Positions 1 to 5,691 of a stretch of 5,791 nt of DNA are shown here, piece after piece. Location: the IMG/VR virus record IMGVR_UViG_3300017753_003745, positions 1 through 5,791 of that record. One strand, written 5' to 3'. A program made the position numbers and the translations under genes. Every line of letters begins with the position of its first letter. Position 1 is the stretch's first letter. The notes under the pieces are model-generated. The model was not told the DNA's origin and searched no databases. It worked only from the letters and a program-made list of their open reading frames with translations. The stretch comes from a virus.

Positions 1-51
1 ACGCCAAAGCTAAGGCCTGATATTATTTCTTTAATCCACATTCTTTCGCTC
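1..51. repeat. Terminal direct repeat, copy 1 (circularisation overlap)
   Basis: acgccaaagctaaggcctgatattatttctttaatccacattctttcgctc is identical to 5741-5791. It runs through coding sequence (end of the 67-aa ORF, start of the 29-aa ORF), so it is an assembly/linearisation overlap rather than a biological repeat. Confidence 0.95.
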
Positions 52-234
52 CCAATATGAAAATATTAGGTCGGCTGCGACTGCGGCTGCAGCTATTGCA
101 CCTGTTTCAATTGCAAGTGCTGCTTCTTGCGCTACTCCCATCGTAATTAATCCGCCTGCGATCATTGATCCCACGCGCCTTAACGTTGGCTTTAGTAGCT
201 CTTTTAAAATAAATTTGTGCACATCAACTCCCAT
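31..234 (-). CDS. Small Gly/Ala-rich membrane protein (67 aa) with two predicted hydrophobic helices and a charged C-terminal tail; candidate holin/pinholin-like or pilot-associated membrane protein
   Basis: ORF track. Hydrophobic segments are VGSMIAGGLITMGVAQEAALAI and TGAIAAAAVAADLIFSYW, followed by the charged tail ERKNVD. The ATG at 234 has no clear SD. An in-frame GTG at 220-222 has GGAG (228-231) 5 nt upstream and lies 1 nt after the TGA of the upstream 73-aa ORF, so the true start may be 222. The stop overlaps the start of the downstream micro-ORF by 11 nt. Confidence 0.55.
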   Translation of the reverse strand: MGVDVHKFILKELLKPTLRRVGSMIAGGLITMGVAQEAALAIETGAIAAAAVAADLIFSYWERKNVD

Positions 235-445
235 GTTCTACACAGGACTTGTTTTGTTCTCTTAGATTCGCATAATATATATTATGAATCCGGACAAACC
301 TGTGGATGTTCTCTGTATATCTCTGATTCGTAAACATTGTCAAATTATTTTTTTGTTGCTTCAAATTTGCTTGGATTCGTTTCACTGCCATCCAGGCTAA
401 ATTTGAGTTTCCCATTGCGACCAGGGCGCATGCCTTGGTCTTCAT
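224..445 (-). CDS. Hypothetical 73-aa ORF; doubtful, may be a non-coding control region
   Basis: ORF track only. There is no SD before the ATG at 445 and no recognisable motif. It overlaps the 150-aa ORF by 101 nt and contains a promoter-like element and a 16-bp palindrome. In its favour, it is an open frame in an AT-rich stretch and its stop (224-226) abuts the possible GTG start of the next ORF. Confidence 0.25.
   Translation of the reverse strand: MKTKACALVAMGNSNLAWMAVKRIQANLKQQKNNLTMFTNQRYTENIHRFVRIHNIYYANLREQNKSCVEHGS
271..286. repeat. Perfect 16-bp AT-rich palindrome cataatatatattatg
   Basis: The sequence equals its own reverse complement (checked by hand). It lies in the least convincingly coding part of the genome and contains a CATAAT -10-like hexamer on both strands. 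Confidence 0.8.
314..343 (-). promoter_or_regulatory. Candidate sigma70-type promoter on the coding strand: TTGACA - 18 nt - TATACA
   Basis: The minus strand reads AAAAAAATAATTTGACAATGTTTACGAATCAGAGATATACAGAG. It has a perfect -35 TTGACA (338-343), an 18-nt spacer and a -10 TATACA (314-319, 4/6 match). An A-tract lies upstream. The element starts 1 nt after the TAA (345-347) of the 150-aa ORF. It could drive the small membrane ORFs, VP2 and VP1, ending at the hairpin terminator at 2971-3007. Confidence 0.35.
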
Positions 446-797
446 TACTGTTGTTATTTACACCACGGTATATATTTTTTCCTCCACTTCCGCCTCGTGC
501 CTCGTTACGGGTTGGTCTATCCTTACACCGACGCCGCAGATTTGTTTTATCTGACCTATTCTTTTCTGATAGGGGCGTTGTTATTATAGGTGCAATAATT
601 GATTGCAACCTACTTTGTATTTTTCGTACCTCAGGTGTTGCGGCGGTTCCAACCACTCCAGTCCTTCCAATACTTATAATTGGCGGACTTACGTATTTTC
701 TATTTGTTCCCGTAGCACTTCGTCGTATTTGCGTCGCGTAATTACTTTTCCGAACTGCTTTATTTGTTTTACGTGATGTTTTTCTACTTTTTGCCAT
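345..797 (-). CDS. Highly basic low-complexity protein (150 aa), overprinted on the 3' end of rep; candidate DNA-binding/packaging protein (functional analogue of phiX174 J or gokushovirus VP8, but much larger)
   Basis: ATG at 795-797 with GGAG (806-809) 8 nt upstream. The N-terminus is MAKSRKTSRKTNKAVRKSNYATQIRRSATGTNRK. By hand count there are about 35 Lys/Arg versus about 10 Asp/Glu. It is on the same strand as all other genes. The first 109 nt overlap rep in a different frame. Confidence 0.5.
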   Translation of the reverse strand: MAKSRKTSRKTNKAVRKSNYATQIRRSATGTNRKYVSPPIISIGRTGVVGTAATPEVRKIQSRLQSIIAPIITTPLSEKNRSDKTNLRRRCKDRPTRNEARGGSGGKNIYRGVNNNSNEDQGMRPGRNGKLKFSLDGSETNPSKFEATKK

Positions 798-1723
798 TCG
801 CCTTGCTCCGTATATACTTCCGCTACGTCTTTATGTTCCCATAGAATACCAGGGATACCTTTATATTCTACTTCCGTTACATCTGCCTTTGTCCAATGGT
901 CAGGTTCTACTTCTTTATCCTGCCATTTTTCGCCATATTTAACGGGCTTGTAATGTAAACGTGTCGTTTCCATTTCGACGTCGAATTCTTCGCGTCTTGT
1001 TTCATTCTCGAAATATTCTTCAAATAATTCGTTCATTGGCTCTTTTCCGTACTTTTTGTACCATCGCCATCTTATTCTTCGCATAAACATATCTTTTGTT
1101 TTGCCCTGCATACAAAAATCTTTTATTTTGTTTCTGCTATTTCGCACGTCTCTAAATTTATAAAATATATTGCGTGGCAATATCATTTCTTTTACGTGCT
1201 GTTTTGCGAGCTCTTTAAAGTATTCTTCGCCTAAAGGCGGTTTCTTGGACATAGCCAAGTGACCAACTTTAACTCGTTCGTCTTGGTCTTTCAGAACATA
1301 TTTTAATACGTACTGAAACCCTTTCCAATCTGGTTCTTGAAAATAACTAAATCCTTTAGTCCAATATTTCCAATTCACACGTTTATTGTTTTCCACTTCT
1401 GGATATTGCTTGTCAAAAAACAAGATAATATGCCAGTGCGCTCTATTTTTTTTCGTACCGTATTCTCCGGCTACTATATACCGTACTGAATATTTTTTTC
1501 TTAATCTTTTCAAAAAATCTTGTACGTCTTTGTAAACTAGCGTTGCTGCGTTTACCCCAGCTTCCCCACCGTATGTTAGTGTTGCTGCGTAAGTTCGCTT
1601 TGCAAACTTACTTTCGGCAATGCATCGACCAACGAGATCGTCAACTCTTCGTTTTCGGCATTGCCAACATTTGCGACAGCTTACTTCAACCCCATTATTC
1701 AACATCGTTGGTGTTATACACAT
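689..1723 (-). CDS. VP4: Replication initiation protein, HUH rolling-circle endonuclease (Microviridae VP4 / phiX174 gpA-like)
   Basis: Motifs read from the translation are: N-terminal MCITP...SCRKCWQCR Cys cluster, motif-1-like ATLTY, HUH motif AHWHIILF (H96/H98, about nt 1430-1438), and the double-tyrosine motif YVLKYVLKD (Y138/Y142, about nt 1298-1312). The two Tyr have the same Y-x-x-K-Y spacing as phiX174 gpA. The SD is weak, which is plausible for a low-expression Rep. Confidence 0.9.
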   Translation of the reverse strand: MCITPTMLNNGVEVSCRKCWQCRKRRVDDLVGRCIAESKFAKRTYAATLTYGGEAGVNAATLVYKDVQDFLKRLRKKYSVRYIVAGEYGTKKNRAHWHIILFFDKQYPEVENNKRVNWKYWTKGFSYFQEPDWKGFQYVLKYVLKDQDERVKVGHLAMSKKPPLGEEYFKELAKQHVKEMILPRNIFYKFRDVRNSRNKIKDFCMQGKTKDMFMRRIRWRWYKKYGKEPMNELFEEYFENETRREEFDVEMETTRLHYKPVKYGEKWQDKEVEPDHWTKADVTEVEYKGIPGILWEHKDVAEVYTEQGEWQKVEKHHVKQIKQFGKVITRRKYDEVLREQIENT

Positions 1724-1816: not shown

Positions 1817-2452
1817 CTATCGTGATCGATTAGCTTCATAAACATTCTCCAAGAAAGCAAAACGAAGTCTTGTTTCTTCCGGAATCTTTATACTGTTTCC
1901 CACACAATGGTTGTAAGCTTGTCTGTATTTCTTCCAATCTTTTATCTCCCAATGTGCAGGATCCCAAAATTCCCATTCGCCGCCCCATTCAAGTTTGATG
2001 TTACGCTTCCTGGCAATTTCTTTTCCAATGGCACCTATCACGTCCCATTGTTTTTTGCTCAAATCCCACGCCTTAGTCGCGCTGATAATATCAACGGCTA
2101 AACCATACTGGTGTGGGCTTTGGCCTGCTCTTGCATTAGACCTACCTTGCGCGTGCAATTCATCTTGCCGCTCACGCGTTCTCAAAAATTCAAACGCTTT
2201 AATTGGTATACGCCTTGCTTTGCACTCTTTGTGCATCGCTTTCCAAAATTCGACTATTTGCGGGTGAACCCACATATATTCGTTTTCACTTTGGTCTATA
2301 ACAACATGAATGTTCTTATGAGCGTTTTCGTCTATTAGGTCTAAAGCAGCATCCGTATGCTTTTTATGCGCCAGTCCTTTTAAATATTGGATACGGTCTA
2401 AAAACCGTATCCACTTTAAAAAACTAAGTAGCGGCTTCACCTTCTGTAACAT
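1817..2452 (-). CDS. Zinc peptidase, M15 family (VanY / T5 endolysin-like D-Ala-D-Ala or L-Ala-D-Glu peptidase); putative endolysin
   Basis: LAS/M15 signature motifs are present: RTRERQDELHAQGRS, SPHQYGLAVD (H114-x6-D121, about nt 2090-2113) and EWGGEWEFWDPAHWE (D164/H167, about nt 1952-1963). The ATG at 2450-2452 has GGAGGA (2464-2469) 11 nt upstream and overlaps the preceding ORF by 29 nt. An alternative start at M60 (ATG 2273-2275) would give a 152-aa single-domain enzyme. Confidence 0.85.
   Translation of the reverse strand: MLQKVKPLLSFLKWIRFLDRIQYLKGLAHKKHTDAALDLIDENAHKNIHVVIDQSENEYMWVHPQIVEFWKAMHKECKARRIPIKAFEFLRTRERQDELHAQGRSNARAGQSPHQYGLAVDIISATKAWDLSKKQWDVIGAIGKEIARKRNIKLEWGGEWEFWDPAHWEIKDWKKYRQAYNHCVGNSIKIPEETRLRFAFLENVYEANRSR
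2388..2413. other. 10-bp perfect hairpin tggatacggt / accgtatcca (6-nt loop) just downstream of the 176-aa ORF stop and inside the 5' extension of the peptidase ORF
   Basis: Arms are 2388-2397 and 2404-2413, checked by hand. On the coding strand the hairpin is followed by ATATTTAAAA. It could be an attenuator or weak terminator, or a translational control element for the peptidase. Confidence 0.65.
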
Positions 2453-2954
2453 CTTCTGTTACTTCCTCCGCTACTACTGTTTTATTTGCCTGCATTTCTT
2501 TTATTTGCTGCCTCATTTCCGCAAGCTGTGTACGCTCGTCTTTCATTTGTGCATCAAAATGAGCTTTGTTTAACTTCATTATTTCCACCATTTGCCCAAA
2601 TTCTTTATTTTCGCGAATGCGTGGCTCTAAATTAACAAATTCGTCGTCCATTGTTTTTGCAACGTTTTGATCTAAATCTGGCAAATTAACCCATACCTGG
2701 GCTTTTTTGTCTGCTTTTATAAGCACCCATGAATTACTTTTTGCAGTATACTCAACCGACATCTTGTCGTCGCCACTTGCGATGAGTACTGCCTTGCTTA
2801 GATCGCTTCCCTCAACATCTGCCCATATTTCAATGGGAGAGTTCGCGATAACCTCAAACGCTACGCGTCTCGGTCTATTGCTTGGGAAGGCTATGACGTC
2901 GCCAGCATTATAATTGCTCCAATGGTCTATTACACCAACTTTAAAATGTTTCAT
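2424..2954 (-). CDS. Hypothetical structural protein (176 aa): beta-rich N-terminal half, helical/coiled-coil Gln/Lys/Glu-rich C-terminal half and acidic tail; candidate scaffolding protein (VP3-like role)
   Basis: ATG at 2952-2954 preceded by AAAGGTGATGAA (SD AGGTGA). The C-terminus DAQMKDERTQLAEMRQQIKEMQANKTVVAEEVTEDVTEGEAAT resembles a scaffold (helical plus acidic). The gene sits immediately after the capsid gene. I recognise no specific motif. Confidence 0.7.
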   Translation of the reverse strand: MKHFKVGVIDHWSNYNAGDVIAFPSNRPRRVAFEVIANSPIEIWADVEGSDLSKAVLIASGDDKMSVEYTAKSNSWVLIKADKKAQVWVNLPDLDQNVAKTMDDEFVNLEPRIRENKEFGQMVEIMKLNKAHFDAQMKDERTQLAEMRQQIKEMQANKTVVAEEVTEDVTEGEAAT

Positions 2955-3017: not shown

Positions 3018-4700
3018 TTAGCTTTTTGTAATACGCGCTGCGTCAACTAAGTTAGTGATTGAGTCGTAGTCTGATGTCGCGTCTGCTTCTATTAAGCGAT
3101 CCCCAAACACTACGTTTGTATCGACAGTTAAATCGCTTACAGCTGTAATCTCAAAACTATCGCTTACTTGATCTGCAAAAATCTTTTTATGTAGATTTGT
3201 GCACAAGTAAAAATCGGTCGACAAACTTGGATCTGTTGTTTCATTTGTCCAAATTCTTGACCGAACCTCTGTGTATGCATCGTTAGCCGGTCTATAAAAT
3301 TTACCGCCTACATTAATCTGATCTCGATTGTATTCGTGATTTAATGGTGCATATCCTAAAGTTGCGTCTGGAGCACTATGATTAACGTCCAGGTGGTTTT
3401 TCTTAACCACTGCAACTTTTTCTGGGTCCAAACTGTCCCGTAGGGCATTTGGCAAATTATCAGTATCTGTTGTATACAAGAAATAATCTTTCTTGCGTTC
3501 CCAAACCCTCTCTGGTGCGATTTCTAAACATGTCATCACTATGCCGCCAATACTTGTCCTGGGCGCTCGCACTCTGTAACCCAATGATACAAATCCATTT
3601 GTTGCTGTATCATCTAAATTTCCACTATCGGTTGCAAACCGTTGTGAAAATCCAAACATTCCAGTTTGTGATCCAATCAACATAGGTTGTTTCATTACTT
3701 CTGTTGGTACTGTTATACCTTGCATTAACAAATCAATTATATATTCGTCGTCTATACCATCATAAGCAGCTCTTATTTTTGCAAACGCTGCCGTTTTTCT
3801 GGCTTGCTCGATGTCTGCTAAAGACATTTTAGCTCCGCCACCTTCTGTTATTTCTGCCCATAAACGGTCAAAAACCCATCCACCAGTCGATCCGTCTGGC
3901 GCAACTTGGGTAGAACTTAATTGAAATTTGTTTACATCACTTTCTGCAGGTGAATACATAGTTGACGCACCAGTTGTACTTTCGTCACCAGCTAGAAATG
4001 TTGTCCCAACACTCATAGCAGTTGACCTTAACGGTGCTTTAAATGTCAACGCGTTTAACGCTACTTCACCATCTATTAGCTTTTGATCAAAATCAGCCAT
4101 AATATGACTGTTTCCTTCGTTTGGCCAAAATGCTTCCGCAAGATCATGTTCAAATTCGTTACGCACAGCTAAACTTGTAGATCTTGCTTTTCTTCTATGG
4201 TTCACAATTGCGTTATATGCTTGCACGTAACTATTGTTCATGTCTGCTACACCATGATGTAGCCCCATAGTTCCATAAAATGTCGCTCTGCCATTATCGC
4301 CAGAATCCATATCTGTTGGAGTACTGTCTGTAACAACCGCTGAACCGTTATAATATTTATTCTTTTCAAAAAAACTTACCGGTGACCCCGCTATTCCGTT
4401 TTCTTTGCTATAACTTCTATTTAATTCATCTATTGACCCGTTAAACTGGTCAAATGCTAAATAGGGTACAAAATATGTGCATGCTTTCGCCACAATAGCG
4501 TTCACTGGCTTTTCTGATGTTTCCATCATTTCCACTGATACATTTACATTTCCGCTGAAACCTTCTTCGCGTAATATTGGATCTGCTTTAATCGGTAATA
4601 TCTTACCCGCATCCCCTGACGTTAATACACGTCCTTTGCTCATACGTCTTGTGCGCTGAAAGCTCACTGGGACGTTAGGTATCATTTCTGTATTTCTCAT
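3018..4700 (-). CDS. VP1: Major capsid protein (Microviridae VP1 / phiX174 F-like)
   Basis: This is the largest ORF (560 aa), the usual size for VP1. The N-terminal pattern (VSFQRTRRMSKGR...GKILPIKADPILREEGF...TYFVPYLAF) resembles the conserved start of F/VP1 jelly-roll proteins as I recall them. A purine-rich SD AGGAGAAG (4707-4714) lies upstream and a terminator downstream. The pilot and Rep gene context also fits. Confidence 0.85.
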   Translation of the reverse strand: MRNTEMIPNVPVSFQRTRRMSKGRVLTSGDAGKILPIKADPILREEGFSGNVNVSVEMMETSEKPVNAIVAKACTYFVPYLAFDQFNGSIDELNRSYSKENGIAGSPVSFFEKNKYYNGSAVVTDSTPTDMDSGDNGRATFYGTMGLHHGVADMNNSYVQAYNAIVNHRRKARSTSLAVRNEFEHDLAEAFWPNEGNSHIMADFDQKLIDGEVALNALTFKAPLRSTAMSVGTTFLAGDESTTGASTMYSPAESDVNKFQLSSTQVAPDGSTGGWVFDRLWAEITEGGGAKMSLADIEQARKTAAFAKIRAAYDGIDDEYIIDLLMQGITVPTEVMKQPMLIGSQTGMFGFSQRFATDSGNLDDTATNGFVSLGYRVRAPRTSIGGIVMTCLEIAPERVWERKKDYFLYTTDTDNLPNALRDSLDPEKVAVVKKNHLDVNHSAPDATLGYAPLNHEYNRDQINVGGKFYRPANDAYTEVRSRIWTNETTDPSLSTDFYLCTNLHKKIFADQVSDSFEITAVSDLTVDTNVVFGDRLIEADATSDYDSITNLVDAARITKS

Positions 4701-4764: not shown

Positions 4765-5691
4765 TCAATACGCACCGCGCATTTCACCCCTTTTCTGAGG
4801 TCCTTTCAAAGTTGTTACTGTTACTGGTGGTAAAAATTGTTTAGTTTTTCTTCTTCTGTTTCTAGAAAAATTTGCTGTACTTTCGTTGCTCATCAAAACC
4901 ATCGCTGTTTTTCTAGCGTCTGCTATTGCAACTCCCAGTCCAACCAACGAGCCAACAATATCTCCATATCGTTCCTCGTAATCTTCAACATTTGAAAAAT
5001 TTTCATCAATTTCCACGTCAGCACCGGCAAATTTTAAATCCAACGCTTCGTCGTCATAATTTCCGCGTGCTATTTCACTATTTATACTTTTTACCTGGGC
5101 TAATATTAAACTTTTATTTAACTCATCCATTCTACTTTCGTGAGAATAATTTTGTTGTCTTGTAAATTCCGCTAAACCTACATTTACGCCTGTTTCCAAT
5201 CCCGCTGCGATTGGATTTCTTGACAGGGTAGGGGTTGCATAAACCCCGTCCATCATAACACTTTGTGCCATTGTTCCTGCTACGGCTGTGCCGTATGCGC
5301 TACCGCCGCCGGCCCTTAACGCTGTTAAAGGGTTAATCCCTGCCTTTTGTGCGTCTTTTACCAAATTATCATAATAATTTTCACGCACTCCTGTATTGTA
5401 TTCTCTGCTTTCAACAACTTCTTTTTTATTACGTTCGTATACTCTTTCGCTTTCCGCTTTGTTTGCAGCCAACACCCTTGTGTTTTCTTTTTTAGCATCA
5501 TTTCTTGTTAAAATTGCGCCTGCCGTACTTGCTGCACTTGATGCCAAGGCCACTTTTGTGCCTGCACTTAATTTTCCTATTACACCCGCAGCTGCGGGAC
5601 CCATTGTTGCTATTGCTGCACCCCCTATAATTGCTTCTACAGGGTTTTTTATTATAGGACGTAATATTTTACGTTCGATCCATTTGAACAT
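4765..5691 (-). CDS. VP2: Minor capsid / DNA pilot protein (VP2 / phiX174 H-like)
   Basis: 308 aa. It has a Gly/Ala-rich hydrophobic N-terminus (AIIGGAAIATMGPAAAGVIGKLSAG), a central AGINPLTAL motif typical of microvirus VP2/H proteins as I recall them, a helical middle and a basic C-terminus. GGAG (5698-5701) lies 6 nt upstream of the ATG. The start abuts the stop of the micro-ORF (TAAATG). Confidence 0.75.
   Translation of the reverse strand: MFKWIERKILRPIIKNPVEAIIGGAAIATMGPAAAGVIGKLSAGTKVALASSAASTAGAILTRNDAKKENTRVLAANKAESERVYERNKKEVVESREYNTGVRENYYDNLVKDAQKAGINPLTALRAGGGSAYGTAVAGTMAQSVMMDGVYATPTLSRNPIAAGLETGVNVGLAEFTRQQNYSHESRMDELNKSLILAQVKSINSEIARGNYDDEALDLKFAGADVEIDENFSNVEDYEERYGDIVGSLVGLGVAIADARKTAMVLMSNESTANFSRNRRRKTKQFLPPVTVTTLKGPQKRGEMRGAY

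Follow-up and report, generated by a model that had tools for sequence, protein, structure and literature searches.

The basic open reading frame (ORF) found 3' of rep in the microvirus record IMGVR_UViG_3300017753_003745 is a genuine protein-coding gene that is overprinted on the 3' end of rep, and not an artefact of low-complexity sequence. This gene constrains the synonymous sites of rep and evolves under purifying selection. It is a member of an old family common to the subfamilies Occultatumvirinae and Tainavirinae; its occurrence in both, as seen from the homology to Gp10 of phage Ebor and to the version of phage ICBM5, means that it is an old gene and not one of recent de novo origin. 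A protein of this kind has already been published (Ebor), and what is new here is a gene with an invariant CK[DE]RP...F[VI]PWC ending across both subfamilies, together with the evidence of selection on it. To our knowledge, phage Ebor is the only one for which a large and basic protein of the virion has been described whose gene overlaps rep (2025), and little is known about the neutralisation and organisation of ssDNA by microviruses outside the phiX174-like and gokushovirus groups.

Organization of the genome and of the basic ORF

The window, i.e. the whole stretch of 5,791 nt that was analysed, is a complete and terminally redundant microvirus record in which every gene is located on the minus strand. 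It includes the following genes:

4765-5691, minus strand: pilot protein
3018-4700, minus strand: major capsid protein
2424-2954, minus strand: acidic 176-aa protein, pI 4.9
1817-2452, minus strand: M15 peptidase
689-1723, minus strand: Rep (VP4), 344 aa, PF23343 and phrog_942
345-797, minus strand: basic ORF as deposited, 150 aa, net charge +25, pI 11.5
31-234, minus strand: 67-aa membrane protein

The Rep protein is 56% identical to those of the Roseobacter phages CRPss-151 to -155, which form part of the proposed subfamily Occultatumvirinae ('Family 7'; PMC11499846, PMC9753089). The genes of the record other than the basic ORF are all full length. The acidic 176-aa protein, encoded between the capsid and peptidase genes, is kept in the relatives and had no match to any family; it is a candidate VP3-like internal scaffold.

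The basic ORF extends from an ATG at 797-795 to a stop codon at 347-345 of the minus strand. As the original prediction had it, the ORF starts 109 nt inside rep in another frame (rep runs from 1723 to 689 and the ORF from 797 to 345), a well-spaced GGAG is present at 809-806, 8 nt before the ATG, and the 150-aa product is very basic, with a net charge that had been put at about +25 and was computed at this value from 35 Lys plus Arg and 10 Asp plus Glu residues (GRAVY -1.13). Both the ATG and the Shine-Dalgarno sequence of its own are embedded in the last 36 codons of rep. The features of this region that are common to the family are:

689-797, minus strand: overlap with rep, 109 nt, the basic ORF being in frame +2 relative to rep
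806-809, minus strand: GGAG Shine-Dalgarno sequence, 8-nt spacer to the ATG, located inside rep codons and kept in 32 of the 44 unique start contexts
477-797, minus strand: family-collinear part, codons 1-107, consisting of a basic N-terminal arm, a variable middle and CKDRP...GGSGGK
513-527, minus strand: first half of the family motif, C-K-D-R-P, codons 91-95, with Cys91 invariant

The Gly-rich loop GGSGG corresponds to codons 102-106 of the window ORF.

Conservation of the gene in related microviruses

Nine close IMG/VR relatives, whose Rep proteins are 79-97% identical to that of the window, possess a 115-aa version of the protein with a terminal F/Y-[VI]-P-W-C that is in frame in all nine. 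The gene is also found in the cultured phages CRPss-151/152/155, Tortoise microvirus 46 and Rhizobium phage RHph_TM1_7A, and in the CRPss genomes it consists of a 109-aa basic ORF that likewise starts exactly 109 nt inside rep. All versions compared have the ATG-Ala-Lys/Arg start and the C-terminal motif C-K-[DE]-R-P...G-x-G...F/Y-[VI]-P-W-C.

A degenerate DNA scan of IMG/VR for the C-terminal motif yielded 108 stretches, about 90 of which are on contigs of microvirus size. The geometry of the gene was counted at the 74 related loci where rep could be placed, which cover Rep identities from 97% to 28%. The frame is open at these related loci, with its start, frame and overlap kept, as the original prediction implied for homologous genomes: the start lies inside the 3' end of rep in all 74, the relative frame is the same (+2) in 73, and the overlap, which ranges from 52 to 332 nt, measures 109 nt in 45 of them, this being also the mode. 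The product has a median length of 110 aa (range 98-178) and a median net charge of +23 (range 16-35). All 44 unique start contexts have ATG as the start codon, and a core Shine-Dalgarno sequence is found 6-12 nt upstream in 32 of them. Run against 1.84 billion proteins, a profile generated from 27 diverse members detected 605 cluster representatives (E<=1e-3), and the matches reach the C-terminus; those representatives that were sampled are unnamed or 'hypothetical'. A gene and an overlap common to two microvirus subfamilies and to 605 protein clusters, with the Ebor case published in 2025, can be called neither unusual nor, in the recent sense, likely de novo, the two descriptions that had been given to it before.

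Other searches added little. Neither the window ORF nor any of the 27 diverse members had a match in Pfam or PHROGs, and look-ups in Rfam and in a protein atlas gave nothing relevant. The window ORF had no tblastn match among phage records, the likely causes being the low-complexity filter and the private tail described below. A word-index homology search with the ORF gave only 4 matches because gene callers mostly miss or truncate it.

The hypothetical proteins located 3' of rep in Occultatumvirinae genomes, e.g. those of CRPss-151 (XAO36503), RHph_TM1_7A (QIG67577) and Tortoise microvirus 46 (QCS37057), are true orthologues and represent the same gene. The public annotations (GenBank PP558214-18, MN988476, MK765598) differ from the gene described here in that they start at or past the rep stop codon, and the gene of CRPss-155 is missing; for CRPss-151/152 the GenBank protein has 78 aa as annotated versus an actual 109 aa. 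As a consequence of annotations that begin at or after the rep stop, the overlap-encoded N-terminal arm has been lost from the protein databases. The CK[DE]RP...F[VI]PWC ending provides annotators with a simple signature by which truncated or omitted records can be corrected. The literature on Occultatumvirinae, as searched, does not discuss the basic gene and draws no link to Gp10.

Selection on the basic frame and on rep

Across the members of the family a wide variety of synonymous codons specify the invariant residues of the motif. The pN/pS ratio of the basic frame outside the overlap (with its bootstrap confidence interval) and the synonymous diversity (pS) of rep outside and inside the overlap were as follows in five clades:

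Clade A (the window's own): pN/pS about 1.0 (0.55-2.2); rep pS 0.40 outside, 0.05 in the overlap
Clade B: pN/pS 0.31 (0.15-0.62); rep pS 0.33 outside, 0.10 in the overlap
Clade C: pN/pS 0.18 (0.09-0.35); rep pS 0.22 outside, 0.06 in the overlap
Clade D: pN/pS 0.30 (0.13-0.67); rep pS 0.29 outside, 0.14 in the overlap
Clade E (CRPss): pN/pS 0.27 (0.14-0.43); rep pS 0.27 outside, 0.04 in the overlap

Clades B to E are independent, and in each of them the bootstrap interval lies below 1 and the other two forward frames have values above 1. The only other frame with a low pN/pS is the antisense frame that shares its third positions with the sense frame, an echo that is expected. The diversity of clade A is too low for its ratio to inform. 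Suppression of synonymous variation in the part of rep that is overlapped, which the original prediction had named as a mark of a real gene, is seen in all five clades as a 2- to 8-fold drop in rep synonymous diversity, and in four of the five none of the 147-302 sliding windows has a value as low as that of the overlap. Since pS rises again past the overlap in clades B, C and E, to 0.14-0.25 in the part that codes for the basic protein only, the dip tracks the dual-coding segment. With regard to which frame of the overlap is ancestral, the two measures of codon usage disagree: synonymous usage favours the basic frame at 40 of 55 loci, and full usage favours rep at 34 of the 55.

In clade A (loci L004-L013) nucleotide diversity is very low in a stretch that begins at about codon 230 of rep, includes the basic ORF and reaches the 67-aa membrane gene (approximately positions 30-1030 of the window); the membrane gene is 100% identical in three clade A genomes, and the 5' two thirds of rep have a pS of about 0.4. 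This block suggests a module that was recently exchanged by recombination or swept. Because diversity is low all the way from this codon of rep to the next gene, the clade A ratio and dip are uninformative when taken alone, and the dip may be in part regional rather than caused by the overlap.

A long ORF in the opposite strand had raised the concern that low-complexity sequence could be inflating ORF length in this stretch. The concern was justified for the antisense ORF and unfounded for the basic ORF. The antisense ORF is:

337-741, plus strand: antisense ORF, 134 aa, compositional by-product of the K/R/S/T/N/G-rich sense frame

It has its third positions in common with the sense frame, and antisense stop codons are possible only opposite Tyr, His and Gln codons, of which the basic protein has 3, 0 and 4, respectively. 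This frame is open over a median of 83% of the gene in the 74 members, and 11% of the codon shuffles of the window ORF gave an antisense frame at least as long as the one observed. The alternative sense frames are open for only about one third of the length. The antisense ORF is a by-product of composition and not a gene.

A private deletion and insertion account for the 150-aa length

The length of 150 aa is unrepresentative of the gene because the last 43 codons stem from a deletion and an insertion that are private to this record, private changes being defined against all nine close relatives. The features involved are:

475-480, minus strand: A6 run at the private 1-nt deletion, A_AAA_AAT in the frame of the ORF, where the relatives have GGAAAACAATAT
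354-459, minus strand: private 106-nt insertion, flanked by the TGT of the terminal Cys on one side and by the shared AAAAAATAA on the other
348-476, minus strand: private 43-codon tail, N108 to K150, which ends at the ancestral stop codon (345-347)
454-477, minus strand: out-of-frame (-1) remnant of the invariant tail, K-Y-I-P-W-C-K-stop, intact

The deletion of one nucleotide converts the GGAAAACAATAT of the relatives into the GGAAAAAATAT of the window record. Together, the deletion (-1) and the insertion (+106) amount to exactly 35 extra codons, and Q-Y-I-P-W-C is replaced by a 43-residue tail. The F/Y-[VI]-P-W-C sequence near the stop is therefore absent from the ORF as deposited and present only in the -1 frame, and the likely cause is the private deletion, be it real or an error. 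The last 43 codons have no counterpart in any relative, and the source of the insertion was not found within the genome, among the relatives, in phage records or in IMG/VR. When an independent copy of the private tail was sought, a second database gave the same record only.

FxPWC is retained in essentially every other member recovered as well as in Ebor and ICBM5, and this invariance argues for the frameshift being an error or a defect. Three origins are conceivable for the 150-aa form, namely a faulty assembly, a genome that is defective and a genuine variant. We consider it unlikely that it is a true functional protein generated by a lineage-specific swap of the FxPWC anchor for the 43-residue tail brought in by the insertion. 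Such a swap would agree with the fact that the two changes add up to a whole number of codons, with a new tail that has no stop codon of its own and terminates at the ancestral one, and with the intact state of the remaining genes, which indicates that the assembly is not generally error-prone. Against it, besides the near universal retention of FxPWC and the matches to 605 clusters that reach the C-terminus, neither the tail nor the deletion junction was found in another IMG/VR contig, in phage records or among the relatives, the only further database copy is the same record, and the -1 frame still spells out the whole ancestral tail, a sign that the change either took place very recently or is an error. 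Should the 150-aa product be real, it would be devoid of the anchor, and the mechanism proposed below may not apply to the genome as deposited. The record is thus flagged as carrying a probable error or defect; otherwise it could be read as coding for an unusually long protein.

The heptamer A_AAA_AAT at 474-480 (minus strand) was created by the deletion, and a -1 slip at this point would restore K-Y-I-P-W-C-K-stop. That two forms, one of 114 aa with the anchor and one of 150 aa, could in principle both be made in this way is pure speculation.

Homology to Gp10 of phage Ebor

Rhodobacter phage Ebor belongs to the Tainavirinae, the sister group, and its Gp10 is a protein of 145 aa with a pI of 11.3 whose gene overlaps the 3' end of the VP4 gene (PMC11980548). 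Gp10 was identified by LC-MS/MS as one of only three proteins abundant in purified Ebor virions (PMC11980548, mBio 2025); the authors suggested that it is an analogue of VP8/J of large size, and it was not resolved in their cryo-EM maps (PMC11980548). The presence in virions that the original prediction expected thus holds for this homologue, and for Ebor only (PMC11980548). The C-terminal end of Gp10 reads C-K-M-R-P...G-G-G...F-V-P-W-C-K-K-V, and an hhalign comparison of the family profile with Gp10 gave a probability of 96.4% and an E value of 1.1e-9 with the same terminal motif. The version of ICBM5, the other cultured tainavirus, has 149 aa, an overlap with rep of about 330 nt and the same motif.

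On the basis of these sequence comparisons the window ORF is the Occultatumvirinae counterpart of Ebor Gp10. Both start overprinted on the 3' end of VP4/rep, both products are large and very basic (pI 11.3 for Gp10 and 11.5 for the window ORF), and C-K-x-R-P...G-G-G...F-V-P-W-C is common to the two. They differ in subfamily, in the length of the overlap (347 nt in Ebor versus 109 nt in the window) and in the middle of the protein, which cannot be aligned; furthermore, the window copy has FxPWC out of frame and the private tail.

Proposed function and alternative explanations

The protein is probably a large, very basic internal virion protein with an arm on the ssDNA and a C-terminal capsid anchor. 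By analogy, it would most plausibly act as a DNA charge neutraliser of the J/VP8 type, but a much larger one. Translation would begin at the ATG, with its own Shine-Dalgarno sequence, inside rep and in the other frame, and the N-terminal two thirds of the product would constitute a disordered arm rich in Lys, Arg, Ser and Thr. The product had been thought to look disordered, and it is mostly so: in the AlphaFold model, which is of low confidence (mean pLDDT 59), the N-terminal half is disordered, and the best defined part is the motif region (pLDDT 70-76), which is predicted to form a beta-hairpin (strands 92-95 and 109-112) with one of the two invariant cysteines on either side. Like phiX174 J and gokushovirus VP8, the arm would bind the packaged ssDNA and compensate for some of its negative charge; 60 copies at about +23 were computed to offset a median of about 25% of the genome charge. 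No correlation was seen between net charge and the length of the genome (rho 0.18, p 0.39). The CK[DE]RP...GxG...F[VI]PWC module may anchor the protein to the inner surface of the capsid, by analogy with J and VP8, whose C-terminal residues occupy a hydrophobic pocket of the capsid, where they are buried, in every microvirus structure that has been solved (PMC11281519). Co-folding of the capsid protein with the C-terminal 60 residues gave a score of 0.00, which is silent on binding either way.

At the family level the proteins have in common with J and VP8 a Lys/Arg-rich arm and a short hydrophobic or aromatic C-terminus, a tail that is not in frame in the window copy. A further likeness is the proposed neutralisation of charge inside a T=1 capsid, with C-terminal burial documented for J and VP8. 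On the other hand, the family proteins are 3 to 5 times longer (about 100-180 aa versus about 25-40 aa; 150 aa in the window), their genes have another genome position, and they have a Gly-rich loop and a pair of invariant cysteines, both of which are missing from J and VP8. The window ORF and the 27 diverse members had no sequence match to the J or VP8 families in Pfam and PHROGs.

Other explanations were weighed against an internal DNA-neutralising protein. The protein might be an internal scaffold like phiX174 B, or a scaffold that also binds DNA, with the C-terminal module on the coat protein during procapsid assembly and charge neutralisation as a secondary property. Like gene B, the gene is written over the replication gene in another frame, the product is close in size to B (about 120 aa), and its most conserved part is the C-terminal module, as would be the case in a coat-binding scaffold; for both proteins the conserved C-terminus has been proposed to touch the coat protein. 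The Ebor authors remarked on the likeness in position and size (PMC11980548), and the GenBank record names Gp10 a 'putative bifunctional structural protein'. However, gene B lies wholly within gene A and its product exits the capsid upon packaging, so that mature virions do not contain it, unlike Gp10, which stays in them; the protein is extremely basic, it has no sequence similarity to B nor a match to known scaffold families, and the acidic 176-aa protein (2424-2954, pI 4.9) encoded beside the capsid gene is a better candidate for a VP3-like scaffold. A scaffold of the B type, or a bifunctional protein, is still a live rival, though a rather improbable one. Much less probable still is a non-structural replication or packaging factor comparable to phiX174 C or gokushovirus VP5 that acts with Rep at the switch to ssDNA synthesis. 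The gene is directly 3' of rep and translationally entangled with it, and DNA binding is common to basic proteins, but the Ebor homologue is among the only three proteins abundant in purified virions, and the invariant hydrophobic C-terminus resembles capsid anchors.

We give next to no credence to a spurious ORF held open by A/G-rich sequence of low complexity. The composition is biased, the antisense frame is open too and the pN/pS is about 1 in the window's own clade; nevertheless, such an ORF is refuted by the conservation across clades of start, frame and C-terminal motif down to 28% Rep identity, by pN/pS values well below 1 in four clades, by the turnover of synonymous codons at invariant residues, by alternative sense frames that are open only for about a third of the length and by the detection of the homologue in virions by mass spectrometry.

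A bolder extension of the internal virion protein reading, possible though on balance doubtful, is that the family represents the missing third structural component of the two microvirus subfamilies, in which the B role (a coat-binding two-cysteine hairpin) and the J role (a charge neutraliser) would be combined in one protein and the DNA-binding arm would have arisen as a short anchor gene was lengthened at its 5' end into rep. The overlap goes from 52 to 347 nt among lineages, and the anchor module is always outside rep. If the arm grew in this manner, the range of overlaps would be a natural series of gene growth by overprinting. For the family as a whole, the two cysteines, the FVPWC tail and the overlap-encoded arm are concrete targets in phages with cultured hosts (CRPss, Ebor and ICBM5).

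Minor observations on neighbouring sequences

In the clade with a 114-aa version of the protein, Rep starts with TTG and not ATG (L020, 4425-5447, minus strand). A doubtful 73-aa ORF is located at 224-445 of the minus strand of the window; its start is within the 106-nt insertion and has no Shine-Dalgarno sequence, and its last 42 codons cross DNA that is intergenic and conserved in the relatives, in which no start codon is kept in the corresponding frame. This ORF is probably not a gene. The intergenic DNA 3' of the basic ORF (235-344) includes TTGACA... followed by the palindrome ATATATATTAT and is conserved at the nucleotide level in the close relatives (L004-L013), which is compatible with a promoter or an origin-like element.
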